A stretch of 57,629 nucleotides of DNA from a virus. Taxonomy: Duplodnaviria > Caudoviricetes. The translations under genes and the position numbers were made by a program. Below the pieces are notes generated by a model that was given only the letters and a program-made list of their open reading frames with translations, had not been told where the DNA came from and searched no databases. This document shows positions 10,110 to 28,608 of the stretch, piece by piece (within the stretch, counting starts at the first letter, position 1; every line of letters begins with the position of its first letter). The DNA is taken from positions 1 through 57,629 of IMG/VR virus record IMGVR_UViG_3300020044_003994; one strand, written 5' to 3'.

Positions 10110-10603
10110 GTGTTCTTCTCCTTCAAGGCTTGCTCAATGGCCTTGGCAAATGTCCACGCATCAAGATCATCCATATAAGTTGCAGAAGCAGAGGCGGCAA
10201 TTACTTCCTCATCCATCAGCCCAACCCATGTGCGCTGTGGTGGGTAGTTGTTGCTACTGCAAGCCACGCATTCATACAGCACTTCTGCTTTGCATTCGGG
10301 GCATATAGGCTCTGTGCGCTGTGGTGGGGTGGTTCGGAACGACATTTCATCGTCAACGCACTTATCACCTACCTGACAGCGAACTCGATAACACCCTTTT
10401 GGGTTTTTAGCGTGTACGCATGGCTCTTGCTCAATCTCTTGCCCCAACCTTTGAACCTCACGCATGGGGTATTCCAATCGTTCTTTGGCGGCCACCAGTT
10501 TGGCAAATGCTACAAGTGCCTCAGAATATATGCCATCAAGGTGTGGGCGCATTCCAATCAATTTGCATTCTTGTGCCATCTCAATGATTTCATCTTGTGT
10601 CAT
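10106..10603 (-). CDS. Mosaic cassette protein (MTQDEIIEMA / PPQRT x2 / WVGL.DEE / LKEKNT modules)
   Basis: ORF track; internal 16-nt direct repeat at 10229 and 10313. Confidence 0.7.
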   Translation of the reverse strand: MTQDEIIEMAQECKLIGMRPHLDGIYSEALVAFAKLVAAKERLEYPMREVQRLGQEIEQEPCVHAKNPKGCYRVRCQVGDKCVDDEMSFRTTPPQRTEPICPECKAEVLYECVACSSNNYPPQRTWVGLMDEEVIAASASATYMDDLDAWTFAKAIEQALKEKNT

Positions 10604-14107: not shown

Positions 14108-14229
14108 CAGTCTTTCCTTTCTTGTTCGTCCATCCAAAACCAAACCTCTGCGAGTGCGTACAGCACCATCCCAGCTACCGCTACACACAGCGCACCCAGC
14201 AAAAATATCGTTACCACTGTCTCACTCAT
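14107..14229 (-). CDS. Small membrane protein, 40 aa
   Basis: Read by eye; AAGGAG RBS; one TM helix. Confidence 0.55.
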   Translation of the reverse strand: MSETVVTIFLLGALCVAVAGMVLYALAEVWFWMDEQERKD

Positions 14230-14590
14230 CTGCACTCTCCTTCACAATGTTGCACTACTATACAACATTATTCATCTACCAGTTAGCTAGGGCTTTCACC
14301 TACCAGACAGGATGATGAGTTAAGCATACCTAACCCGTTGACCCTCCCTCCCCTGCTGGGGGCTTGGAGGATCAAGGCTCTTTACCAAGGCACTATGTCG
14401 GGTATGCCGACTATCGGGTAGCCACTCCGCCCTCCCCTGGGATCCCGATCCTTCTAGCTTTCGCCTGTTGGTCGATCATCTCCCAGTCAGTGGGGTATGT
14501 GTCATGAATGACAGCCTTGTATATCCCTTTCGCTTACGCTACTTGGGGGCGCGGGTCACGCCGAGCCGGTCTTTACAGTCTTCCCTTCGC

Positions 14591-14800
14591 TTCCACCGTC
14601 AGGGTCTGGTCGCTTGTACGTGTGATGGGGGGAGGATGTCTGTCCCCCGTGCTGGCACTACACGGCAGGAGTGGAAAGCAAAAAAGCCGTTAAGACAGAC
14701 CCCGGTGGAATGACACCAGCTTGTGGCTGGAGCAACCCCATTACGGGGTCGGGATCTGACTTAACGGCTTTCAATTGCATGGCATTCCACTGCCTAGCTG
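14591..14800 (-). ncRNA. Structured leader/attenuator with terminator-like hairpin and alternative pairings
   Basis: AAAGCCGTTAAG/CTTAACGGCTTT stem (14683-14771) followed by a U-run on the minus strand; repeated GTGGAA/TTCCAC complements. Confidence 0.65.
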
Positions 14801-14806
14801 GTGCAG

Positions 14807-14836
14807 ATTATTGCAGGAAGTTTCAGCGAATGTCAA
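14807..14836 (-). promoter_or_regulatory. Sigma70-like leftward promoter
   Basis: TTGACA-N18-AATAAT on the minus strand. Confidence 0.6.
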
Positions 14837-14928
14837 CACCCCATGCGCTTGAGGGTTAATAAATTGTTGGGGAGGAATTACCAGCGGTGGCGCAAACACT
14901 CCACAGAGGCGGCAACCACATGAACCAT

Positions 14929-14993
14929 CCAACACGGCTGGGGACTGTTGGCCTACTCCGAGAACCCCCAGAGTCAATCCCCATGCGTGTTAG
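14929..14993 (-). ncRNA. Constant-stem/variable-loop hairpin unit B
   Basis: CTAACACGCATGGGGATTG-N27-CAGTCCCCAGCCGTGTTGG. Confidence 0.7.
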
Positions 14994-15095
14994 TTGTTGG
15001 TGAGATTCGAACTCACGGAGGCCCAAGTATTGCCCATGACGGCACTCAAGTCTCTATAGTCATGTCACCAATAGACCAGACTCTGGCACAACTAC
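14992..15095 (-). ncRNA. tRNA-like RNA (class II shape) with an 18-nt anticodon loop; not a canonical tRNA
   Basis: Acceptor GTAGTTG/CAACAAC (6/7 pairs), D-arm CCA..TGG, stem CATGAC/GTCATG, variable arm, T-arm GTGAG-TTCGAAT-CTCAC; no encoded CCA. Confidence 0.7.
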
Positions 15096-15176
15096 CAACA
15101 CGGCTGGAGACTGTGTGTCCAACGAGCAAGAAGCCTCAATTGGCTACCTGTGGCTGGCAATCCCCATGCGTGTTAG
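15095..15176 (-). ncRNA. Constant-stem/variable-loop hairpin unit A
   Basis: CTAACACGCATGGGGATTG-N44-CAGTCTCCAGCCGTGTTGG. Confidence 0.7.
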
Positions 15177-15185
15177 CTGTTTATC

Positions 15186-15213
15186 AAAAAAATGGGATCT
15201 ACACAGACCCCAT
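15186..15213 (-). terminator. Rho-independent terminator
   Basis: ATGGGGTCT-GTGT-AGATCCCAT followed by a T-run. Confidence 0.75.
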
Positions 15214-15249
15214 AAGGAACGAACACATGAAGTGGCAACTGCTTACCAC
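15186..15249 (-). ncRNA. Candidate ~64-nt antisense sRNA (hairpin, seed, terminator)
   Basis: TATGAT -10 at 15256-15261; hairpin GTGGTAA/TTGCCAC; seed TTCATGTGTTCGTTCCTT; terminator. Confidence 0.6.
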
Positions 15250-15256
15250 GGCTCCA

Positions 15257-15544
15257 TCATACACATTTTTTTAAAATCTCCAAAGCCTCATCCACATTAT
15301 TGACAATAGCTAATAAGCCGCCCGTCCATTCATCAAAGAACTTCTGCTCCGCCTGTGTCAGCGCCCGCGCCGATGGAGACTTGTTTCCATCTTTGACCTC
15401 CAGCAGCAGCGTATAGCCTCTGTAGCCCACCAAAAGATCAGGGACGCCATCACCCATCGTTACCACCCGAACAGTGGCTCCACAGGCCCGCAGCGCAGAA
15501 ACAATTTGCTCCTGATTTGCATCCACTCTATTTGCTCTGCGCAT
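15257..15544 (-). CDS. VRR-NUC-like PD-(D/E)XK nuclease
   Basis: RVDANQ..IV.ALR..G, GVPDLLVGYRG, LLEVKDG, LT..E..F. Confidence 0.8.
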   Translation of the reverse strand: MRRANRVDANQEQIVSALRACGATVRVVTMGDGVPDLLVGYRGYTLLLEVKDGNKSPSARALTQAEQKFFDEWTGGLLAIVNNVDEALEILKKCV

Positions 15545-16413: not shown

Positions 16414-16987
16414 CATTCATAAATGTCACAGACCATAATGAATCTTTTTTAAAAAAGGAAGAGCCATGACGGGAAAACATTCTGTAACAAATTCTCGAAT
16501 CCCAAAAAACTACAAACTTACAAAAGAATTTTTGGATTCTATTTTTGAATACAGAGACGGTGACTTGTATTGGAAGCTTGAAAAGGCAGGGACTATAGAT
16601 GGAGGCGGCTATTGGCAGACAGGAATTAAAGGCAAGTATTTTAAAAATCATCGCTTGATATTTCTTATGCACCACGGCTATCTGCCCAATGTTATTGACC
16701 ATATTGATGGCAATAGAACCAACAACAAAATTGAAAATTTGCGTGAAGCCACAAGAAGCCAAAACAATTGCAATACAAAAATTCCATCCAACAACACATC
16801 TGGCGTGAAGGGCGTTTCATGGGTAAGTAGATTAAAAAAATGGAGGGTAAGAATTTATGTAGAGAAAAAAATGCACCACTTGGGTTACTTCAATGATTTT
16901 GATGATGCCGTTAAAGCCTCAAAAAAAGCAAGGCAAAAACTCCATAAAAATTTTGCAAGGGAACAATAATGAAACTCACAAACAAAT
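16406..16987 (+). mobile_element. Free-standing homing endonuclease insertion flanked by a 19-nt direct repeat
   Basis: ATGAAACTCACAAACAAAT at 16387 and 16969; AT-rich; own TTGACA-N18-CATAAT promoter. Confidence 0.75.
16466..16969 (+). CDS. HNH homing endonuclease with C-terminal AP2-like domain
   Basis: HRLIF, IDHIDGNRTNNKIENLR, NTSGVKGV.W, W.VRI....HLGYF. Confidence 0.9.
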   Translation: MTGKHSVTNSRIPKNYKLTKEFLDSIFEYRDGDLYWKLEKAGTIDGGGYWQTGIKGKYFKNHRLIFLMHHGYLPNVIDHIDGNRTNNKIENLREATRSQNNCNTKIPSNNTSGVKGVSWVSRLKKWRVRIYVEKKMHHLGYFNDFDDAVKASKKARQKLHKNFAREQ

Positions 16988-17847
16988 TTGGATTACCAGA
17001 AACTATAGTCAACGTTATACATCGGCCCACCTACAGCAAGGGGTCTGCAAACATATCAGCGACAGAACTGCTCAACAGCCCTCGTATCGTTCAACTCAAG
17101 CGCAAGCATTGGGATGAGATTGAGACTGATGCCAGCGAGATGGTCTGGTCACTGTTTGGCTCTGCAGTTCACAACATCTTGGAGCATGGTAAAGATACCC
17201 ACCATATCGTTGAGGAGCGGATCTTCACTGAGTACGATGGTTGGAAGCTGAGCGGCGCGATTGACCTGCAAGAAGTTGAAGACGATGGAATCATCATCTC
17301 CGACTACAAGGTCACAGGCGCATGGTCAGTGATGAATGAGAAACAAGATTGGCACAACCAGCTAAACGTTTACGCATGGCTGGTGGAGAAGGTAAAGAAT
17401 AAGCCTGTCAAGAAACTCCAAATCATTGCCATCGTGCGTGATTGGGTCGCTAGAGACACAGTAAAAGAAGGCTACCCATCATCCCCCATCGCTACGATTG
17501 ACATCCCTCTGTGGCCGTTTATGCACCGTGAGGCATACGTAAAAGACAGGATCAACCTGCATAGCCACGCTTACTTTGAGAGCGAGACTCAAGGAGAAAT
17601 CTCTGACTGCACACCAGAGGAAATGTGGGAAAAGCAAACAACCTATGCCGTCAAGAAAGTTGATGGTGTACGTGCCAAGAGTGTTCACAAGACACTGGAG
17701 GAGGCACAAGCTTCACTTAGCCAGCTTAAGGGCTATTCAATTGAAGTCAGACCGGGCGAACGAACACGCTGCGAAAAGTATTGTCAGGTCAACGGCTTCT
17801 GTTCTCAATACCAAAAATACCTGAAGGAAAAAAATGACAGTGTATAA
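16969..17847 (+). CDS. PD-(D/E)XK exonuclease (Cas4/AddB-like Cys cluster)
   Basis: G.AVH..LE, EER, LSGAIDL, DYKVT, QLNVYAWL, RC..YC....FC. Confidence 0.85.
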   Translation: MKLTNKFGLPETIVNVIHRPTYSKGSANISATELLNSPRIVQLKRKHWDEIETDASEMVWSLFGSAVHNILEHGKDTHHIVEERIFTEYDGWKLSGAIDLQEVEDDGIIISDYKVTGAWSVMNEKQDWHNQLNVYAWLVEKVKNKPVKKLQIIAIVRDWVARDTVKEGYPSSPIATIDIPLWPFMHREAYVKDRINLHSHAYFESETQGEISDCTPEEMWEKQTTYAVKKVDGVRAKSVHKTLEEAQASLSQLKGYSIEVRPGERTRCEKYCQVNGFCSQYQKYLKEKNDSV

Positions 17848-18520
17848 AAAGCTGCAAGCAGCAAGACATGAGCTTTCAAAAGCCAACCTCAAGAAATCAG
17901 GATTGAATTCTTTTGGCGGCTGGAAATACTACGAACTGGGAGACTTTATTCCCACAGTGAACAAGATCTTTGATGAGAAGGGATTGTGTGGCGTGTTCTC
18001 CTTTGGGGAAGTGGCAACGTTAACAATCTTTGATTCAGAAACTGGTGATGGAGTCGTGTTCTCCACCCCTATCGTCTATGCCGAGAGCAACAAGGGACAA
18101 CCTATCCAGTTGCTGGGCAGCACCCATTCTTATTTGCGCCGTTACCTTTGGTTGATGGCGATGGAGATTGTTGAGTCCGATGCGGTGGACGCTGAGAAGC
18201 AAGAGGAAAAGCCAGAGCCGGTGAAGGTCAAGGTCAAGCCACCAGCAAAGATCGCCGGAGCGGATAACCCCTGGCAGCTTTCAATCACAACAGATGAATC
18301 AGCAGGTCTGCAAGATTGGCTGAACATTGTTGTCGAGGCTACACGCATGGCACTGCGTCAGGCCAAATCAGAGAAAGATGTGCTGGACATCTTCAAGGTT
18401 AATCGGGTGATCTTTGATCGCCTGAAAGCAGAATCCGAAGAGGATCATGTCGCCATCCTGGGCGATTTCAAGAAACGCAAAGACGAACTGAAGGAGGAAA
18501 GCAATGGCACAGTACCCTAA
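17834..18520 (+). CDS. erf: ERF-family ssDNA annealing protein
   Basis: KKSG.N.F....Y.EL.D, Q.LGS..SY.RRY. Confidence 0.8.
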   Translation: MTVYKKLQAARHELSKANLKKSGLNSFGGWKYYELGDFIPTVNKIFDEKGLCGVFSFGEVATLTIFDSETGDGVVFSTPIVYAESNKGQPIQLLGSTHSYLRRYLWLMAMEIVESDAVDAEKQEEKPEPVKVKVKPPAKIAGADNPWQLSITTDESAGLQDWLNIVVEATRMALRQAKSEKDVLDIFKVNRVIFDRLKAESEEDHVAILGDFKKRKDELKEESNGTVP

Positions 18521-21859: not shown

Positions 21860-21876
21860 TGGAAACGTTTCCACTA
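21857..21876. repeat. GGWAACGTTWCC site 5: perfect 20-bp palindrome between two convergent stop codons
   Basis: TAGTGGAAACGTTTCCACTA. Confidence 0.9.
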
Positions 21877-24800
21877 CTTCATCGACTTGCGGGTTTCTTC
21901 AGCCTGCTCAGCCATCATTGAAATCAATTCTTTGAGGCGGTCAATCTCTTCACGCTTGGTAGCGCCGTCCATAGAGGTGTCGTTTGTAACCATGCGGATC
22001 TGCAAGCGCACCTTAGCCATGTTCTTTGCCGTCTTGTCATAGAACTTGGCTAGGCCAATCTTGTCTTGCTTCTCTTCAAGGATCTTGAGTACCTTAGCGG
22101 AGTCACCGATCTCTGCATAGTGCCGCATATCAGCATACGCCTGACTGATCTCTTTGTTGTTCTCATAGAAAGCAGTGGCGTATTTGGATTGATTCGATGG
22201 CAGCGACTTGATGAATCCAACACTCACCTTGTCCACCCACTTGGTATCAGGATAAGCGCCATCTTTGAACGGCATGACGGCATAGTGCGATGACTCTGCA
22301 ATCGTGCCGCCCAGCCAGCCAAAGTAAGCCTTGATGGCATAGTCCACCTGCACAGGAGACAGCCCCTCACCAGGAACCACCACCTTGGTCAAGCCACCCA
22401 GGGCGATAGCCAACGGGCTTGTGGTGTCTGTTGCACGTTCTTGCTTGGACAAGCGCTCCATGCCGGTAGACTCAATCGGCGCACCAGTGAATGAATCTTT
22501 GTTGGCATACAGATCCACCAGCGGCTTCACAAACTGAGGCAGGTTGACCGCAAAGGTGTCCGTAATCATTCTCTTCAATGACTGCTCAAACTGCTTGCCC
22601 TCTGCGCCTTGGTCAAAGATCTGCTCAGCCGTGCGCTCTGCCAACGTACCAAATGCACCGATCTCAAAAGGTTTGGGTATGCGCAGCGCATATTCCATTC
22701 CAGGCAGCTTGAACCACCAGAAGTTATCCCGATCCCACTCATCCCGCTTCTTAAACTCTTCATCGTCCTTGAACGCAAAGTACAAGGCCAAGGATGCAAA
22801 GCACACAGCGCCGGTAACGATTCCAAAGGACTCAGCTTTTTGCCTGTCCGTTTGCTCAATCGGCTTACCAGTGATGGAGTTATAGAACACCCGAACAGTA
22901 GGATTGATGCCGTCTTTGCCCAGCTTGTACAGACCTTGTGTGCGGGCATTCAAGAATGGAATCACTTGAGTCAGCAGGCGGAAGGCAGGCCATGAGCCTT
23001 GCATAGAGAAGTCAAGCAAATCTCTGGCGTAGTATGAAGCTTCAAGGTGCCCATAACCCTTGTCCTTCATCTGTTGATACAGCGCCATGCGGTTTGCAGA
23101 TTCAGACTTGTTGCCAAACTCTTGGTACTTATCCCATGCCTTTTTAAGTTGGGTCTTAATCTTTGCAGGTGTATCCAGAATGTGTTCTTCTTTGACGCCC
23201 ATCTTGATCAGCCGCTTCACCAGCGCAGCCTGATCTCCCTCAACGATGGAGCCAAAGTTAAACAAAGCGCCGCCAGCCAAGGCAGACATATGGGCAGGAT
23301 TGTTCTTGTTGCTCAAAGCCCAGCCGTTAACCACGTTGGCAAATGGATTCTTCTTCAGGTCACTGACAGCCATCGCAGAGATGGAGTCGCGGAACAAGTT
23401 GCGGATCTTGAACGCAGGAGAAATGGTCACGCCAAACTGGAGGACGTTCTTGAATCCTCTAGCCACATCCAAGAACTTGGACTTTGGCCCCATGTATCCA
23501 ATGGAAGTAATTGAATCCAGCAGCAAAGGATCAAGCACTTGGTAATACACAGGCTGACCATCGACCATCGCCTTAACTGTTCCCTTGCCGGATTCAGTCA
23601 TCCACGACTTGACAGATCCATCGCCGACCATTTCATCATTGCTGCGGTAGTAAACCTTACCGTCAATGATGTAGTACGGCACTTTGAGGTTTGGCTCTGC
23701 GCCGCCCAGCTTTTCGGCAGCAGTAAGCGAAGCGGCAGCAGCCTGATTCTTCATGGAAGCAGACAGGATGTGACTCCAGTTACGCAGAGTGTTTTCCATC
23801 AGATCGGCAAACGGGCTGACACCACCCTCCAAAGCTTTGGAGAAGTGCTGGTTTGACAAGCCGCTAGAAGTCATTACCTTGGAAACGTCACCATCTTCCA
23901 TCTCACGATAGAACGGGATGTAGTTGATGTCAGCAATGAAACGCTCATAGCCGATTGGGTTCTTTTGCAATTCCTCAATCTGGGCCTCAAGCTCTTCAAT
24001 CTCTTTTTCTCTCTTGGCATCAGACAGGTTTTCATTGTTCTGAGCAACATTGATGCGATCACGCAGCCTGTCAATTGCGTTAGCCGTAGAGTCAATCAGC
24101 CCAGCGTCCAGGGCCACCTTCAGCACAGAACGGTTTAGTTTGTTCATCTCCGTGCGCACAGCTTTATAGACCTGCTCACGAGGCTTGCCGTCTATCTCTC
24201 CGGCGCTAAGCTCATCCCTGCGGCTAACAAGCTCATCCAGGTTGTCAATGTTGGATCGTTTGTTCGCGGGCAGATCGGCTTCACGATTCAAGGCAACCCA
24301 CATCTGGTAACGATCCACCTCATTGCCCAGAGGCTTCAAGACTTCAATCATGCCCTTGGTATCAGGTTTGATATTCAGTGCGCCACCGTCATTGAATACT
24401 TGACCAAAGAACATTAGACCTTCAAGAGCGCCGTCTACAGTTTTGGACATACGAGCAAGAATATAAGCGTCTTCGCTGTACTCTTTAATGGTGCGGAACT
24501 GATCAGCAATACCTTGGGAAAGGCGCTGCCAGAAGCGATCCTGCATCTCTTCAATGCGCTCAACGATTGTCTTCCTCTGAGGAGCAAAGATAGGATTGGC
24601 CTTCTCCAAAAAGTCGGGCGGCACATCTTGGAAGCTGGTGGGCGACAGAGGCTTGCGCTTTTGCAGAGCAGCAGAAGCCTTGGCTTTTAATTTGTCGCCC
24701 AAGCTCTCCTCTTCAACCTGTTCTTCGCCCACGCTCTCATAAAGGAATTCTTCCCTGGGCGCATACTTGACATTCTTTGCCAAGACAAAACGACCCACCT

Positions 24801-27800
24801 GCAATACCTCATCGGCAGACACAACAGGCTTGGTGTTTGATCTATCGTAGAAGAATGAATGGCGCAACGGATCCAGGCTAACCTGTGACCACGCAGGATC
24901 TTTCATCTTTTCTTTGACCATCTTGAAGATTTCATCTGGCGTCATATTGACCCAGGTTCCCTCAATGGTTTGCTGCGGTGCTTTTTGTCCTGCACGCCCT
25001 TCTTTCATTTGAGCAATGCCAAACGCCTTCTCTTCAGAACGGATGGCAAACACAGCATTCTTTAAAAATCCAGCCGACTTGTAGCTGATATTCTTTCCAG
25101 CCGCCGCATTGGTTGCGGGCTTGCCTTCGTGAATAGACACTACGCTGCCATTAACTCCGTTGGCTCTTCCCCACTCCAACGCAGGGATGTCCATTCGCAA
25201 GCCAACTTTTGTGCCGTCTGCAATAGGGGCATTAACAAGCTTAGGATCTTTTTTCTGAGGAATCTGGTGTACCAAGATTTCCCTCATGAGCGCCTCAACA
25301 ATAGGAATTTCTAGCTTGTCACCAAGTATTTCTCTGATGGGCATATAGTAATTTACATACTCATCATACTGTTGCTTGGTAATGTTTCCAGCCTTTAGCT
25401 CACGCGCAGCAAGCACAACCTGTTCATTGCGGCCTTCTTTTAGCTTGAATCCCTTGGGCGCAGTTAGCTTGGGAGGAGCTTTAGCAACAGGCTTTGCTGC
25501 TGCCGGTGGCGCAACCTTCTTCGTGCCAATGCTGCGACCAATAGCCTTCTCGGTTACCTCTGTGGGGGTTTCTAGCAATGTATCTGCCGCTCTGACCACC
25601 GCATCCAAAGCGGTTTCATATTGCGCATCTATACCCAGGAACTTCCTGAATATCTCTACCAATCGGGTCAAAGCATTGGTGTTGCCAACCTTTACAGTTT
25701 TAAGGTAGTCCTGAAAATCTGGATAAGTTAAACCCCATGAAATTAATTCTTTGACGTTCTGAACGGTGTTGGCACCCTGAGCAATTGCGTCAAAAATTGG
25801 ATGCTGTTTACCCGCCCTTTTGTCGGCGGCAATCTGCTTTTTTACTTTATCAAGCACAACAGTTAAGTCGTTGTACTCTTTTCCCCGTGCGCTCAGCAAA
25901 GGAACGGTGGCAGCATGAAGCAATTCATGCAAGATGGTGATGTATCTTGTGCCCGTACCTCTATGCGCTTTGCCATTTTTTAATCCGGCAAATTTTAAAT
26001 TACCAGCGCTTAAATTAATTGCGTAACTAAATATGCCACGGTAACTTAAGTCATCTCGGTTTAAAACGGTAACAGGTTTATTGAAAAAATTCCTGTCATC
26101 AAGCTCTTTAATTCGAACCAAGACCTTTTCTGCAACAGCTTTTGCCGCACTGTTTGGCGCATTGTCCACAGCCCATTGAGCAAGCTGAGTAGCGGTCATG
26201 CCCTTTATCTCTGCGGCAATTTCCTCCATTGACTTCTTGGCAACAAAGTCTTTTGGCTCCGGCAGCGCCGGGGGAAGGCCCGCATCTACTGTTGGTTTTT
26301 CTTCTTTTGGAGGGATTTTTTTAATACCGTCAGTCTTTCTTTGGGGTTTAATGACTGAAGAATTCTTAATAGCATCTGCTTGTTCAATTTCGGCTTGGGC
26401 GATAAGTTCGTTGATTTCATCTTGGGTAAATCCTTCGCTGATGTATGTTGCAATTTCGTCTATGGTGTACTGATTTTCACCAATGGTGTATGACTGCGAT
26501 CCGCTTGTTGCAGCAAACAAAGCGTTGCGATATGCACCATTAAATTCTTCAATAGATGCACTAGGCAGGCTGTCGCTTAATTCTTCTCTCAGGCGATCAA
26601 TATCTACGCCAGCAGAACGAGCTTCTTCCTCAAGATCTTTCAAGCTTACTTCGGTAAGATCTTCTTTTGGCTGCTCGGCCATCTCTCCAAGCTCTAAGTT
26701 TGTGCTTGGAACAGCTTTTAGCTTTTCAAGCTGATCCTGTATCTCTGCTTTTTTATTTTGTGCAGCCTCTATCTTTGCGGCGGCTTCTTCGGTTCTATAG
26801 TCCCCATTGCGCAGCTTCTCTGCAATATGTTCTATCGCTGCCTGGGCATCAAAGTTTTCATTGTCGGAGCGGTTTTCCGTTGGCAAAAACGCATCCAGCG
26901 CACCATCGGCCACTAAGTCTTCCAAGAGAACGCCTTGCCCGCTAGCGCTGTACAGCTGACGCAAACTCTTTTTGTCTTTGTCAATATCGGCCAAAGAGAA
27001 TGCGCCGGGCCGCTCCACAAGCGTTCCCTTGAGCATGCTAAACAGGCTTCCCTTTTCAGCCTGCGCCTCTTTTATTTCCTTGTTTACCTCAACCAAAGCA
27101 GCCTGCACTTCTTTTATTTCTTGCTTTTCTTCTGGGGTAAATTCGACCTTTTCTACACCCCTGGGTTTTGTTTGCTCAGTCTCAATAGGAACAAACTCAG
27201 GCGCTTCTGGCTCCACGGGCGCAGCAGCCTGCGGCTCAGGAGGTGTAGCGGCAGGGGGCGCTTCCGCAGGTGGTAACGTTTCCACGCCGGTTGGCGCAGC
27301 GGCACTAGGAACCTCGGTTTGTGAGGGTATACCCTGATCGACAGGTGGTAACGTTTCCACGGCAGCAGGCACGCCCGGTGCTATTTCTGTGGGCGGCGCA
27401 GCAGGTGGCGGCGGAGGTGTGCCTTGACCAGCGGGTGGGGCGGCAGGTGGTAACGTTTCCACCTTGGCCTCTGGACGCCGTGCAGCACCAGCAATGGCAC
27501 CCATGCCACCGCCACCAATAGCAGCCATACCAGCGGCCTGACCAACGCCAGCAAACAGATCCTGCTCAGGGTTGACCTCACGCATAGCCAAATTCTGAGA
27601 GAACTTGCCGCCACCCTCTTCAACCATCTCGCTTACGGACTCGCCCAAAGCGCCTTTACCGGCACCCAGAATGCGACCAGTTTTCCCTGGGACTCCAGCA
27701 AATGCCTCTTCCAAAGTACGTGCGCCGGGAAGTCTCTGGGCCAACAGTGAGATCAAAGCGCCAGACGCACCAGCAGCCCTAGCTAATCCCAAAGCTTTCT

Positions 27801-28608
27801 GAGCAGCTTCCGGCTCAGACATACCCTTGGCTATCGCCTCTTTGTAGATGTCTTCATAGGCACCAGCGCCTATATCAGCACCCTGCTGTACGGCGCCAGT
27901 ACCAACAGCAGCCTTGACACCAAGCTCACCGGCTTTCTTGGCCGCGATCTGCTTAGCCGCCACCTGGGCAGCTTCTTTGGCAGCGCCGCTAGCCACCAAT
28001 GCAGCAGCTTCACGGGCAGTAATACCAGCAGCAGTAAGTGCAGCAGTGCCGCCACCCGTTAACAAGGCTGGAATAATCTGTGGAATCTGCTCCACCAAGA
28101 AGCCAACAAGCAAGGCTGGGTCTTTGACAGTCTCGCCAAAAGCCGTAACACCGGCAGCAATCTGCCCGGTCTTTTCAGCTTCTTGTACCTTCTGCGCCCT
28201 GGCTTCTTCTTTAGCCTTGAGCGCCGGGGACAGCATCTCTTCCCCATACTTCTTGATGTCTTCACCAGCCCCCAACAGACCAGTTTTAGAGAAGTCTCCA
28301 GTAGCCAAGCCATACAACTGACCCGGTAACTGTACCAACGAACCAATGCCAGAAACAAACTTGCCGCCTACGTCCTTGGCAGCTTCACCATATGTCCTTT
28401 GAGGAATAGGCTTGGCTGTAGAAACCGCTTCTTCTTGGACAACAGGCGCTTCTACGCCATACTTTTGCCGGATGGCAAAGCGGGTTGCATCATTTGCCTG
28501 GGAATAGTTGGGATCCTGTGACGCATACTTATTAAAAATGGCTTGCTTGGTAGCAAAGTTTGCATTTACATAATTTGGGTCAGCAAGAACTTCTTGTAAA
28601 GTGGGCAT
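21874..28608 (-). CDS. Giant internal virion / polyvalent protein with HExxH motif and C-terminal LPD38-like domain
   Basis: 2244 aa; LHELLHA; WDRDNFW...RIPKPFEIG; last gene of the virion operon. Confidence 0.75.
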   Translation of the reverse strand: MPTLQEVLADPNYVNANFATKQAIFNKYASQDPNYSQANDATRFAIRQKYGVEAPVVQEEAVSTAKPIPQRTYGEAAKDVGGKFVSGIGSLVQLPGQLYGLATGDFSKTGLLGAGEDIKKYGEEMLSPALKAKEEARAQKVQEAEKTGQIAAGVTAFGETVKDPALLVGFLVEQIPQIIPALLTGGGTAALTAAGITAREAAALVASGAAKEAAQVAAKQIAAKKAGELGVKAAVGTGAVQQGADIGAGAYEDIYKEAIAKGMSEPEAAQKALGLARAAGASGALISLLAQRLPGARTLEEAFAGVPGKTGRILGAGKGALGESVSEMVEEGGGKFSQNLAMREVNPEQDLFAGVGQAAGMAAIGGGGMGAIAGAARRPEAKVETLPPAAPPAGQGTPPPPPAAPPTEIAPGVPAAVETLPPVDQGIPSQTEVPSAAAPTGVETLPPAEAPPAATPPEPQAAAPVEPEAPEFVPIETEQTKPRGVEKVEFTPEEKQEIKEVQAALVEVNKEIKEAQAEKGSLFSMLKGTLVERPGAFSLADIDKDKKSLRQLYSASGQGVLLEDLVADGALDAFLPTENRSDNENFDAQAAIEHIAEKLRNGDYRTEEAAAKIEAAQNKKAEIQDQLEKLKAVPSTNLELGEMAEQPKEDLTEVSLKDLEEEARSAGVDIDRLREELSDSLPSASIEEFNGAYRNALFAATSGSQSYTIGENQYTIDEIATYISEGFTQDEINELIAQAEIEQADAIKNSSVIKPQRKTDGIKKIPPKEEKPTVDAGLPPALPEPKDFVAKKSMEEIAAEIKGMTATQLAQWAVDNAPNSAAKAVAEKVLVRIKELDDRNFFNKPVTVLNRDDLSYRGIFSYAINLSAGNLKFAGLKNGKAHRGTGTRYITILHELLHAATVPLLSARGKEYNDLTVVLDKVKKQIAADKRAGKQHPIFDAIAQGANTVQNVKELISWGLTYPDFQDYLKTVKVGNTNALTRLVEIFRKFLGIDAQYETALDAVVRAADTLLETPTEVTEKAIGRSIGTKKVAPPAAAKPVAKAPPKLTAPKGFKLKEGRNEQVVLAARELKAGNITKQQYDEYVNYYMPIREILGDKLEIPIVEALMREILVHQIPQKKDPKLVNAPIADGTKVGLRMDIPALEWGRANGVNGSVVSIHEGKPATNAAAGKNISYKSAGFLKNAVFAIRSEEKAFGIAQMKEGRAGQKAPQQTIEGTWVNMTPDEIFKMVKEKMKDPAWSQVSLDPLRHSFFYDRSNTKPVVSADEVLQVGRFVLAKNVKYAPREEFLYESVGEEQVEEESLGDKLKAKASAALQKRKPLSPTSFQDVPPDFLEKANPIFAPQRKTIVERIEEMQDRFWQRLSQGIADQFRTIKEYSEDAYILARMSKTVDGALEGLMFFGQVFNDGGALNIKPDTKGMIEVLKPLGNEVDRYQMWVALNREADLPANKRSNIDNLDELVSRRDELSAGEIDGKPREQVYKAVRTEMNKLNRSVLKVALDAGLIDSTANAIDRLRDRINVAQNNENLSDAKREKEIEELEAQIEELQKNPIGYERFIADINYIPFYREMEDGDVSKVMTSSGLSNQHFSKALEGGVSPFADLMENTLRNWSHILSASMKNQAAAASLTAAEKLGGAEPNLKVPYYIIDGKVYYRSNDEMVGDGSVKSWMTESGKGTVKAMVDGQPVYYQVLDPLLLDSITSIGYMGPKSKFLDVARGFKNVLQFGVTISPAFKIRNLFRDSISAMAVSDLKKNPFANVVNGWALSNKNNPAHMSALAGGALFNFGSIVEGDQAALVKRLIKMGVKEEHILDTPAKIKTQLKKAWDKYQEFGNKSESANRMALYQQMKDKGYGHLEASYYARDLLDFSMQGSWPAFRLLTQVIPFLNARTQGLYKLGKDGINPTVRVFYNSITGKPIEQTDRQKAESFGIVTGAVCFASLALYFAFKDDEEFKKRDEWDRDNFWWFKLPGMEYALRIPKPFEIGAFGTLAERTAEQIFDQGAEGKQFEQSLKRMITDTFAVNLPQFVKPLVDLYANKDSFTGAPIESTGMERLSKQERATDTTSPLAIALGGLTKVVVPGEGLSPVQVDYAIKAYFGWLGGTIAESSHYAVMPFKDGAYPDTKWVDKVSVGFIKSLPSNQSKYATAFYENNKEISQAYADMRHYAEIGDSAKVLKILEEKQDKIGLAKFYDKTAKNMAKVRLQIRMVTNDTSMDGATKREEIDRLKELISMMAEQAEETRKSMK
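27272..27460. repeat. GGWAACGTTWCC sites 6-8 (27272, 27347, 27449), encoding VETLPP x3
   Basis: CAGGTGGTAACGTTTCCAC three times. Confidence 0.9.

Follow-up and report, generated by a model that had tools for sequence, protein, structure and literature searches.

Two constant-stem hairpins beside a tRNA-like element in a phage sequence: members of a modular phage RNA family

Two hairpins on the minus strand of the 57,629-nt phage sequence analysed here (the window) belong to a large family of phage RNA hairpin modules that has so far no annotation and is here called S_A. The reading preferred for this family, to which we assign a probability of about one half, is that of a modular polycistronic precursor of phage ncRNAs and tRNAs, in which the constant helices would serve as processing and stabilising punctuation. 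With its near-invariant stem, its swapped structured tips and its abutment to tRNA-like elements, the family looks like a cassette system for small phage RNAs.

The initial annotation, made from the letters alone, had described two units with constant arms and unrelated tips, and the repeat search and the arm scan of the window agreed with this description. Direct repeats were found at 14975-14998/15158-15181 (24 nt, 96%) and 14929-14948/15095-15114 (20 nt, 95%), and a scan that tolerated three mismatches located the 19-nt 5' arm at just two sites of the window, both on the minus strand, as compared with 0.01 occurrences expected from 100 shuffles. The 3' arms of the two units differ at one position, and the tips (44 and 27 nt) are unrelated to each other. 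Folding of the minus strand gave the arrangement proposed earlier, in which a 2x2 internal loop (CA/GC) separates a lower stem of 8 bp from an upper stem of 9 bp in each unit, at minimum free energies of -37.6 kcal/mol for unit 1 (z = -4.58) and -34.8 kcal/mol for unit 2 (z = -5.09), which were equalled by none of 200 shuffles. The pairs that are not Watson-Crick are G-U when read on the minus strand. A covariance model, built from 115 sequences that included both window units, scored unit 1 at 62.5 bits (15178-15093) and unit 2 at 65.2 bits (14995-14927) on the minus strand, and the plus strand at only 24.7 and 18.5 bits. Both units carry the defining S_A elements, with GUUGG and a closing CCAAC after each.

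Table 1. Features of the non-coding island of the window, with coordinates on the whole stretch.
Feature	Position	Strand	Basis or remark
Intrinsic-terminator-like hairpin and T run	15186-15213	minus	9-pair stem 15213-15192, then TTTTTTT; directly upstream of the array
S_A unit 1	15176-15095	minus	Arms, direct repeats, model match, fold
S_A unit 1, parts	5' arm 15176-15158; 44-nt structured tip 15157-15114; 3' arm 15113-15095	minus	
tRNA-like S_B element	15095-14993	minus	Sequence reading; between units 1 and 2
Acceptor-like strands of the tRNA-like element	15095-15089 and 14999-14993	minus	GUAGUUG/CAACAAC, 6/7 pairs
D-arm-like hairpin with GG in the tRNA-like element	15086-15068	minus	Sequence reading
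T arm GTGAGTTCGAATCTCAC of the tRNA-like element	15016-15000	minus	Sequence reading
S_A unit 2	14993-14929	minus	Arms, direct repeats, model match, fold
S_A unit 2, parts	5' arm 14993-14975; 27-nt class-A tip 14974-14948; 3' arm 14947-14929	minus	
Terminal S_B-type domain (GUUGGAUGG...CCCCAAC, then AAU)	14866-14933	minus	Sequence; compare L003, L060, L055
CGCATGGGG 9-mer fused to TGTTGACA	14839-14847	minus	Possible relic of a third 5' arm
Sigma-70-like promoter (TTGACA, 18 nt, TG-AATAAT)	14807-14836	minus	11/12 consensus matches only
I1 long hairpin, 22-nt arms 91% complementary, then U run	14676-14771	minus	Conserved terminator-like element

The arms are conserved beyond the window: at least 120 viral contigs carry the exact two-arm pattern. 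The constant sequence is 5'-(A)C(U/C)AAC ACG [CA] UGGGGAUUG ... CAGUC(C/U)CCA [GC] CGU GUUGG-3', and the family was defined by ACG-[2x2]-UGGGGAUUG / CAGUCCCCA-[2x2]-CGU, with GUUGG common to the next helix. The stem comprises about 17-19 bp, and its bulge-free upper part leaves the symmetric 2x2 loop as the sole interruption; this loop varies among subfamilies, being CA/GC in 43 and fully pairable in 3 of the 69 distinct units used for the stem statistics, a set that includes diverged units found beside an unrelated marker motif. Across these 69 units 96.4% of the stem cells pair, against at most 48.1% in slid controls; changes on both sides were seen at 11 of the 17 pairs, and 46 cells were compensatory, as compared with 8.8 +/- 2.4 in shuffles, none of 500 of which reached 46. 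The stem cells comprised 993 Watson-Crick, 134 G-U and 3 A-C combinations, a set of counts that alone does not tell RNA from single-stranded DNA. The excess of G-U over A-C indicates that the fold exists, and is selected, on one strand only, as had been proposed from the two window units, and the stem is thus supported as a selected structure on the minus strand, which is taken to be the transcribed strand. The stem sequence is near-invariant, more so than pairing requires, with conservation figures that are inflated because the samples were drawn by exact-match patterns and the model was built from them.

The earlier statement that the module has no named family was confirmed. No gathering-score match to Rfam 15 was obtained across the whole window, GOLLD, ROOL, Y RNA, self-cleaving ribozymes and group I introns included, and a search of 14300-15500 at E up to 10 returned just two chance-level matches, away from the units. 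Among 40 related loci only tRNAs reached the gathering score, with no match on S_A or on the recurrent payload class B1; a single group I intron match stayed below its gathering score. An open-access word search, which may miss an existing description, found no literature on the S_A stem or the B1 motif.

A second covarying helix, S_B (GUUGGNN...NNCCAAC), nearly always follows S_A directly and without a linker, the last five bases of S_A (GUUGG) being the first bases of S_B. It forms the acceptor stem of a tRNA, of a tRNA-like RNA (as in the window) or of another structured RNA, and the domains that it encloses span 43-225 nt (median 93). Positions 6-7 covary (UG/CA, UA/UA, CG/CG, GU/AC, AU/AU and CA/UG), and 102 distinct domains close at a score of at least 12, with AAC then following in 57 of them. 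In locus L075, S_B is a tRNA by Rfam (48.2 bits, gathering score 29) that begins exactly at GUUGGUG and has a 6-nt anticodon loop, and in L034 a tRNA-Glu likewise begins exactly at the start of S_B. A tRNA-Arg ending in ...CCA joins the S_A arm directly in L062 and L122, which are the only two cases of an arm starting CCAAGACG after a tRNA among the 20 distinct pattern matches listed; at least one other CCAAGACG match (L024) is terminase coding sequence. Several S_B payloads keep tRNA elbow features. The tRNAs called by ARAGORN near units lay on the strand of the unit in 13 of 13 cases in a first sample and in 14 of 15 in a larger one, the sole exception (L159) being attributed to an orientation slip of the script, and the phage record MW202545.1 carries six further tRNAs on the unit's strand once oriented by the model match. 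Flanking ORF families with recognisable products have the same orientation as the units, and in the window the flanking ORFs are encoded by the minus strand. With tRNAs and tRNA-like elements placed among them on one strand, the units resemble what a polycistronic precursor cut by RNase P and RNase Z, and perhaps by RNase III, would look like.

The segment between the two window units is tRNA-like and contains no ORF. It shows the features expected of a tRNA in its T arm with a UUCGAAU loop, its D loop with GG and its 7-bp-type acceptor, in which six of seven pairs form. As this acceptor-like helix overlaps each neighbouring arm by one base, the element fills the gap between the units, and this part of the initial annotation held. 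A true tRNA, however, was not found: ARAGORN called no gene in the whole window, the spacer (15094-14994) gave no RF00005 match at E up to 10 in the Rfam search of 14300-15500, no 5-bp anticodon stem with a 7-nt loop could be drawn by reading between the D and T arms, and the fold was no better than that of shuffles (z = -0.63). Near-identical copies of the element were present in 3 of the 24 loci with its T arm (L250, L251 and L262). The S_B-type domain after unit 2 likewise gave no significant fold on its own (z = -0.37), and its payload class is placed within an S_A stem in L003 (1639-1735).

The tips proved exchangeable, as had been claimed. Among 211 units from 162 loci, 159 distinct tips in 88 classes were counted, and the stretch between the 14-nt arm cores ranged from 12 to 106 nt. 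The tips are themselves structured; in class A the tip helix covaries over 17 sequences, pair 15-35 being AU in nine, GC in three, CG in two and UG in two. The tip class of unit 1 recurs in L030, L083 and, diverged, in L062. Class B1 was found within both S_A and S_B stems and also behind promoters of its own, four loci (L130, L141, L155 and L157) having B1 modules directly behind TTGACA-17-TATAAT. In the reassortment sample, half of which was chosen through B1, 28 of 72 S_A classes precede at least two S_B classes, 26 S_A classes were found ahead of B1, and in the 229 pairs of loci with a common tip class DNA similarity begins at the 5' arm in 186 and ends at the 3' arm in 173. Modules reassort at the constant junctions, and the mosaic boundaries lie there.

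An initial suggestion was that the tips might act as guides or antisense RNAs. This was not supported, as the longest antisense match of either window tip elsewhere in the window was 10 nt, in line with the earlier failure to see a convincing loop target there, and the class-A tip keeps its hairpin through compensatory changes, structure and not sequence being retained. The longest same-strand match was 13 nt, against about 11 expected. Constant and variable segments do alternate in a phage, as in an RNA-guide array (a CRISPR mini-array, or a TIGR or bridge-RNA-like system with the variable loops as spacers), and TIGR arrays are phage-borne and may take stem-loop forms (PMC12045711). A guide array is nevertheless extremely improbable for S_A and is already contradicted: the arms form a 19-nt inverted pair, the structured stretches between the arm cores are not spacers of fixed length, the tips keep structure over sequence and have no target in the window, and among the 88 distinct window ORFs no Cas, Tas/Nop, TnpB, IS110, integrase, transposase or RT gene was found.

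The cassette-like exchange and the mosaic boundaries would also fit a DNA element, either a single-stranded recombination site like the attC site of integrons or the terminal inverted repeats of a miniature mobile element, whose RNA would be functionless. Two constant boxes, an unpaired central spacer and a variable tip make up an attC-like architecture, the AAC...GTT ends are attC-like, the strand asymmetry would fit a single-stranded DNA hairpin as well, and genes for an Erf-type recombinase and an exonuclease lie 2 kb from the window units. However, the attC cores RYYYAAC and GTTRRRY were present in only 3 and 13 of 211 units, respectively, and together in none; there are no extrahelical bases, and the internal loop is symmetric. 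Furthermore, the window ORFs include no integrase or transposase, the "cassettes" are tRNAs and tRNA-like elements rather than ORFs, the tips and S_B helices covary with G-U pairs, and host genomes, in which one would expect a source of transposase, lack the element almost entirely. A DNA element was therefore considered improbable. The miniature-mobile-element version of it was rejected because of the lack of a target duplication, the fixed partner helix and the absence from hosts.

The S_A family is widespread in uncultivated freshwater phages. Among cultured phages, a unit search of 50,697 phage records gave only four records, at E of 2 or more, and a comparison of the 1-kb region with phage records matched only MW202545.1, across the I1 hairpin (75% identity across window 14663-14790); the annotation of that record lists both a diverged unit and the I1 hairpin under hypothetical proteins. 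The exact pattern matched twice in 185,579 species genomes, both times on short MAG contigs, and model matches were obtained in 3 of 141 Burkholderiales-order genomes, one of them the MAG already matched by the exact pattern. The two new matches adjoin phage-type genes (HNH and TerS; holin and endolysin), and in G118, a Burkholderiales genome that carries a prophage, the unit is flanked by terminators and precedes the HNH and TerS genes. The genes next to S_A, whose order changes, encode terminases, nucleases of the HNH and VRR-NUC-like types, and unknowns. A 95-aa PD-(D/E)XK-like ORF just upstream of the window units (15257-15544) recurs upstream in 11 loci, but at a distance of about 1 kb in L071; it was rejected as a partner, the recurrence being treated as synteny and not linkage.

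This phage-specific distribution is consistent with a stem that is held by one conserved, sequence-specific partner, which might be an RNA or a protein of host or phage. The tips and tRNA-like elements would then form a combinatorial set of decoys or aptamers, directed for instance at host defences that target tRNAs or sense RNA, and processing would be secondary. A stem sequence kept past the needs of pairing, tips that are very diverse yet structured, modules that reassort freely and the tRNA elbow features kept in several S_B payloads point the same way. However, no partner gene is linked to the units, given the varying order of their neighbours, no Pfam family for RNA binding or RNA processing is represented among the 88 distinct window ORFs, there is no defence that can be named as a target, and the estimate of conservation is biased by sampling. 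Such a role for the stem is thus a doubtful possibility. Tentatively, S_A might also be pictured as an RNA counterpart of the integron, in which dozens of small folded domains, tRNA mimics and B1 among them, mounted on two invariant helices would be swapped between phages by recombination there, released by host RNases and used as fast-evolving decoys or aptamers against host factors, the stem having one conserved partner.

The surroundings of the units raise a further alternative. In the window the units lie between the upstream terminator-like hairpin and the I1 hairpin, and I1-like sequence was also found downstream of the arrays of L071 and upstream of B1 modules, for example in L140. A partial third copy had been noted near 14840. 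The CGCATGGGG 9-mer does exist there, as one of four window copies against 0.54 expected (the fourth, at 10461-10469, is on the plus strand), but the covariance model detected no third unit in the window at E up to 10, and since the 9-mer has no model match and overlaps the promoter-like site, it is a relic at most. The promoter-like site, judged by its sequence, would start a separate downstream RNA. A promoter within the 3' arm (GTGTTGG, resembling GTGTTGACA) was considered and rejected, the common S_B classes showing, by eye, no -10 element after it.

S_A might accordingly be a cis element, that is, a 5' or 3' stabilising hairpin of leaders or intercistronic regions, or an RNA like the put RNA of HK022 for read-through of the surrounding terminators at the entry to late (terminase) operons. 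The modules often immediately precede terminase or other genes, and in 33 of 116 arrays a start codon with its ribosome-binding site lies within 60 nt; terminator-like hairpins were found upstream (within 90 nt) in 11 and downstream in 14 of the 116; and the position of the window and G118 units beside terminators, together with the B1 modules behind promoters, would suit such a role. Near most arrays, however, terminators and promoters are both lacking, some units stand in tandem or within tRNA clusters, the downstream genes vary, and the diversity of the tips would be needless. A cis-acting role was therefore regarded as unlikely.

Under the preferred reading of a modular ncRNA/tRNA precursor, the modules and the genes that flank them would be transcribed together, within a polycistronic tRNA/ncRNA island. 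Punctuation would be provided by the constant helices, with a predicted RNase P cut at the S_A|S_B junction (...CGU|GUUGG...), and the long S_A stem with its internal loop may serve as a stabilising 3' hairpin, as an RNase III-type site or as both. The pieces released would be small stable RNAs with the variable parts as payload, and the constant arms double as sites of reassortment between phages. The three bases that precede the proposed RNase P site (-1 to -3) take part in S_A pairing, which would normally hinder RNase P. As RNase III has little sequence specificity, a processing role leaves the constancy of the stem sequence unexplained.

Two further observations also speak against this reading, namely the upstream terminator-like hairpin with no sigma-70-like promoter between it and unit 1, and the difference in the internal loop between subfamilies. 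Contigs from true metatranscriptomes (runs X16 and X18) cover the window only at 14328-14648, outside the hairpins, which were covered only by contigs from X17 and X20, libraries flagged "probably DNA"; one X20 contig (91 nt, depth 4215, across 14949-14988) may be a collapsed repeat common to many phages.

Enigmatic RNAs are known from phage tRNA islands. What is unusual in the S_A family is that it is small and very widespread and combines two invariant helices with dozens of reassorting folded payloads. If the helices are handles for processing or for a partner, they would provide a natural scaffold for the expression of arbitrary small RNAs together with a catalogue of phage RNA domains that might target proteins of host defence or of tRNA handling, and existing annotations would need correction, such as the "hypothetical proteins" of MW202545.1. 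The two Burkholderiales genomes with copies beside phage-type genes offer an experimental entry point.

Several known systems resemble S_A in part. GOLLD and ROOL are ncRNAs of phages and prophages that occur near tRNAs and partly come from lake metagenomes, their function being given as unknown (PMC5737381). Each is one large ornate fold, unlike the small repeated modules of S_A and S_B, which have no Rfam match. TIGR units consist of 8-12-nt repeats and 9-nt spacers next to a Tas gene with a Nop domain (PMC12045711). S_A shares with them the tandem array of constant and variable RNA segments in phages and differs in the size of the unit, the nature of the spacer and the lack of a gene for the Tas (Nop) protein that TIGR systems require.

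In attC sites, paired R and L boxes, an unpaired spacer and a variable terminal structure are combined, and extrahelical bases of the L box mark the strand that is recombined. S_A likewise has two constant boxes, a spacer, a variable tip, strand asymmetry and cassette-like reassortment; unlike attC, it has no core consensus, extrahelical bases, IntI gene or ORF cassettes, and structural selection keeps its variable parts as RNA-like helices. The R0.3-R1.3 sites of T7 early mRNA are intercistronic RNase III hairpins whose cutting leaves a stabilising 3' hairpin. Like these, S_A is a phage hairpin set of lower stem, internal loop and upper stem, placed between cistrons on the transcribed strand. 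Its stem sequence, unlike that of the T7 sites, is kept across many unrelated phage contigs, its tips are long, diverse and folded, its stem adjoins a tRNA-type acceptor helix, and its cleavage is predicted.

The species 1 and 2 RNAs of T4 are stable RNAs of unknown function that are co-processed in a phage tRNA cluster, and in tRNA punctuation and mascRNA-type RNase P processing, tRNA-like folds are themselves the processing signals. S_A arrays resemble the T4 cluster in their small structured RNAs interleaved with tRNAs, here on a single predicted precursor, and differ from it in the constant hairpin before each tRNA-type helix and in that most of the linked "tRNAs" are degenerate or replaced by other folds. 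In the PeSLs, mobile regulatory cassettes of T4-type phages, short conserved sequences with a promoter and a stem-loop flank exchangeable protein genes. In S_A, too, conserved stem-loop sequences flank exchangeable modules and mark recombination junctions, whereas RNA structure makes up the cargo and a covarying helix the conserved part.

The S_A hairpin, a constant stem with an exchangeable tip, was found in the window as two units with identical 5' arms and 3' arms differing by one base, as the initial annotation had described, and the 19-mer arm matched there twice at up to three mismatches (0.01 matches expected). Both units adopt the fold proposed for them, an 8-bp stem, a 2x2 internal loop, a 9-bp stem and then a tip of their own, with z-scores of -5.09 and -4.58 that were equalled by 0 of 200 shuffles. 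The tRNA-like character ascribed to the spacer between them held in part: it combines a T arm and a D-like arm with an acceptor-like helix that shares one base with each flanking arm, but it has no anticodon arm, is not called as a tRNA by ARAGORN or Rfam, and folds at chance level relative to shuffles. The supposed partial third copy proved to be a bare 9-mer (CGCATGGGG), present four times in the window against 0.54 expected, and the family model detected no third unit there. Consistent with the earlier statement that no named family was recognised, Rfam 15 gave no match in the window.

The units belong to an island of roughly 1 kb in which no ORF is convincing, bounded by one minus-strand ORF that ends at 15257 and another that starts at 14188. 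The window comprises an entire IMG/VR virus record of 57,629 bases, with an estimated completeness of 91%. A GT2 glycosyltransferase ORF and a 95-aa PD-(D/E)XK-like ORF lie upstream of the island, and a methyltransferase ORF downstream. The 95-aa protein (15257-15544, minus strand) contains a PD...EVK motif, matches phrog_93 (E = 1.3e-7) with no Pfam match, and is a putative minimal PD-(D/E)XK or VRR-NUC-like nuclease; homologues precede S_A units in 11 other loci. Another minus-strand ORF of the window, at 21874-28608, encodes 2244 aa and contains an LPD38 (large polyvalent protein) domain.

Elements of the non-coding island, in minus-strand order
Feature	Position	Strand	Remark
Terminator-like hairpin with T run	15213-15186	minus	first element of the island
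S_A unit 1	15176-15095	minus	
tRNA-like element	15095-14993	minus	between units 1 and 2
S_A unit 2	14993-14929	minus	
Domain with closing helix GUUGG...CCAAC	14933-14866	minus	
9-mer CGCATGGGG joined to a strong promoter-like site	14847-14807	minus	
Long hairpin (I1)	14771-14676	minus	22-nt arms, U run
Remaining non-coding sequence	beyond the I1 hairpin	minus	about 330 nt

Matches to the pattern CACGCATGGGGA-N20-50-TCYCCAGCCGTG came from at least 120 viral contig stretches and yielded 130 units, and a covariance model built from 115 non-identical units recovered additional ones, longer in the tip and altered in the stem, from the same loci. As a sample not selected by its stem, loci were collected through B1 (GGGTTAGCGCC...CTGCTTYATGTGAGC), an unrelated motif often found 3' of the stem, and the model was run on 100 of the 120 B1 loci listed. 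This revealed a second S_A subfamily, AAG-UA-UGAGGAUUG / CAGUCCUCA-UU-CUU. In an alignment of 70 units (69 distinct), to which the window contributed two, the B1 sample 50 and the first sample 18 diverged ones, 96.4% of cells were paired, and 11 of 17 pairs had changed on both sides. Compensatory cells numbered 46, compared with 8.8 +/- 2.4 in shuffles (0 of 500 as high), and sliding the partner by 1-3 columns reduced pairing to 35-48%. Because units were obtained through pattern and model searches, the sequence conservation of the stem is overstated; the count of compensatory changes is immune to that selection. The cells comprised 993 Watson-Crick pairs, 134 G-U and only 3 A-C, and it was therefore determined that the helix is under selection on only one of the two strands. 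Of 69 units, 43 had the internal loop CA/GC and 8 had CA/GU; the loop could not pair at all in 53 units, could pair by half in 13 and could pair completely in 3.

Directly 3' of almost every unit stands the sequence GUUGGNN, the complement of which, NNCCAAC, follows 43-225 nt downstream (median 93), forming a second constant helix termed S_B. Among 102 distinct domains of this kind, AAC follows in 57, and positions 6-7 covary (UG/CA, UA/UA, CG/CG, GU/AC, AU/AU and CA/UG). Where GUUGG is replaced by GAUGG (L049, L107 and L117), the S_B 3' strand changes to CCAUC and the S_A 5' side also changes, to CCAUC or to CUAUC/GCAUC; these coupled changes indicate that GUUGG has two alternative partners and forms the better helix with the downstream one. 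In L075 (548-618), S_B is the acceptor stem of an Rfam tRNA (48.2 bits) starting exactly at GUUGGUG, and in L034 it is part of a tRNA-Glu. It is the closing helix of tRNA-like, T-arm-containing folds in the window and five other loci (L019, L036, L035, L089 and L052), and of non-tRNA folds such as B1 elsewhere. In L062 and L122 a tRNA-Arg with a CCA end leads directly into an S_A arm. The L075 tRNA, which ARAGORN did not call, has a 6-nt anticodon loop and the family acceptor stem GUUGGUG/CGCCAAC.

Nearby tRNAs called by ARAGORN were on the strand of the unit in 13 of 13 cases in the first sample, as were six further tRNAs in MW202545.1, a metagenome-assembled relative whose strand was set from the model match rather than from a spurious fuzzy match. 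In the larger sample 14 of 15 were co-stranded; the one scored as an exception, in L159, is an orientation-assignment error, since its tRNA-Met starts downstream of B1 on the same strand. Co-stranded flanking ORF families with recognisable products were two terminase large-subunit families (28-93% identity among loci), TerS-like, VRR-NUC-like nuclease and HNH-like. Crude scans of the 116 distinct arrays with enough flanking sequence found a terminator-like hairpin within 90 nt upstream in 11 and within 150 nt downstream in 14, and a ribosome-binding site with start codon within 60 nt downstream in 33. Thus, most units are intercistronic or lie in tRNA islands.

Fuzzy matching of the 14-nt arm cores, with tip length taken as the distance between cores, gave 211 units in 162 loci; their tips, 159 of them distinct, span 12-106 nt (median 39) and form 88 similarity classes. 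The 27-nt tip of the window belongs to a class of 17 sequences whose apical helix stays paired through two-sided changes (pair 15-35: AU 9, GC 3, CG 2, UG 2). Tips and S_B domains are found in varied combinations: 28 of 72 tip classes with a recognisable S_B are followed by at least two S_B classes, and 26 precede B1, in a sample half of which was chosen via B1. B1 itself occurs within S_B helices 3' of S_A, enclosed by S_A stems, in helices immediately 3' of TTGACA-17-TATAAT promoters, and in a third scaffold, GAGACUGGGAUUG...AGUCCCAGUCUC. With the consensus GGGUUAGCGCC ... CUGCUUYAUGUGAGC (L126-L245, outside the window), it is a second widespread phage RNA module, matched in at least 120 contigs with at least four different closing helices; beside the B1 module of L195, 558-777 gave a group I intron-like match of 38.9 bits (gathering score 50). 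When 229 locus pairs with a common tip class were compared by blastn, similarity began -30 to +10 nt from the 5' arm in 186 and ended -10 to +30 nt from the 3' arm in 173, and it extended as far as the segments compared did in 36 pairs on the upstream side and 32 on the downstream side. The S_A unit is thus a mosaic block delimited by its arms. Possible agents of such shuffling are encoded beside the window's island on the opposite strand (16466-18520, plus), namely a homing-endonuclease-like protein (HNH_3 plus AP2), a PD-(D/E)XK exonuclease and an annealing protein of the ERF family.

Two true riverine metatranscriptomes provided contigs of 214-226 nt over 14328-14648 (3 differences per 222-226 nt), one fragment being bordered by adapter sequence at 14518 and 14648. 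None of their contigs covered the hairpins, for which all coverage came from libraries marked as probable DNA; that the units are transcribed is thus inferred from strand-specific structural selection and co-orientation. A 341-nt stretch here (minus strand), with a fold modestly better than that of shuffles (z = -2.31), is a candidate for another abundant small RNA, independent of the I1 hairpin that lies upstream of it. At 14676-14836 (minus), a near-consensus promoter-like site (TTGACA, 18 nt, TG-AATAAT; 11 of 12 consensus matches) is followed by I1 and its U run, an arrangement suggestive of a self-contained sRNA gene some 125 nt long. I1 is conserved in MW202545.1 (75%), whose annotation lists it as a hypothetical protein, and also close to arrays or B1 modules of other contigs.

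MW202545.1 was the only relative of the region, carrying a diverged unit (27.1 bits; likewise annotated as a hypothetical protein) 140 nt upstream of six tRNAs, and cultured-phage records gave chance-level matches only. Among 185,579 species, one genome each, the exact pattern occurred twice, in MAG contigs of 1.8 and 2.3 kb. The model matched 3 of 141 Burkholderiales-order genomes, one being a MAG already matched by the exact pattern. The two new copies, both diverged, suggest a location in prophages: one (G118:C1:1884586-1884702), in which the stem is compensated (UGGCGAUUC/GAGUCGCCA), has terminators on both sides and lies upstream of HNH and TerS genes, and the other (G064:C30:7250-7331) adjoins holin and endolysin genes. 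From this distribution, the hosts are probably freshwater Burkholderiales.

Taken together, the data establish S_A as an RNA-type (or single-strand-type) helix family that lies on the sense strand of phage operons, bears exchangeable folded tips and is joined to acceptor helices of the tRNA type. The simplest mechanism, to which we assign a probability of roughly 0.5, is a polycistronic precursor punctuated by the constant helices. The processing steps proposed follow the established behaviour of RNase P, RNase III and the CCA-adding enzyme. RNase P would cut at ...CGU|GUUGG..., the site where the family's real tRNAs start, the 3' trailer (A followed by AC or CC) would be trimmed, and tRNA-type pieces would be finished by the CCA-adding enzyme, leaving the S_A hairpin as a stable small RNA or protective 3' end; RNase III may also cut the hairpin, as at T7 early sites. 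This agrees with the initial annotation on architecture and processing but departs from its guide or antisense function, as neither tip has a complement longer than 10 nt elsewhere in the window. The precursor reading leaves the near-invariant stem sequence unexplained, and three alternatives were therefore retained: that a conserved partner binds the stem, the tips serving as a decoy repertoire, which is unlikely; that S_A is a cis-acting leader, which is somewhat more doubtful still; and that it is a DNA-level recombination element, which is improbable and is weakened by the attC core sites, both of which were matched in 0 of 211 units, and by the lack of a recombinase among the window ORFs.

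A guide array of the TIGR or CRISPR type is mismatched in unit size, spacer nature and gene content. Neither the S_A stem nor B1 was described in the open-access literature searched by word or in Rfam 15, which also gave no match on either in 40 related loci. Both the structured RNAs of phage tRNA islands and hairpins that serve in processing are kinds already known; we know of no earlier case in which two invariant helices are combined with many payloads that reassort, and there is a real chance that S_A and S_B form a distinct cassette-type RNA system.
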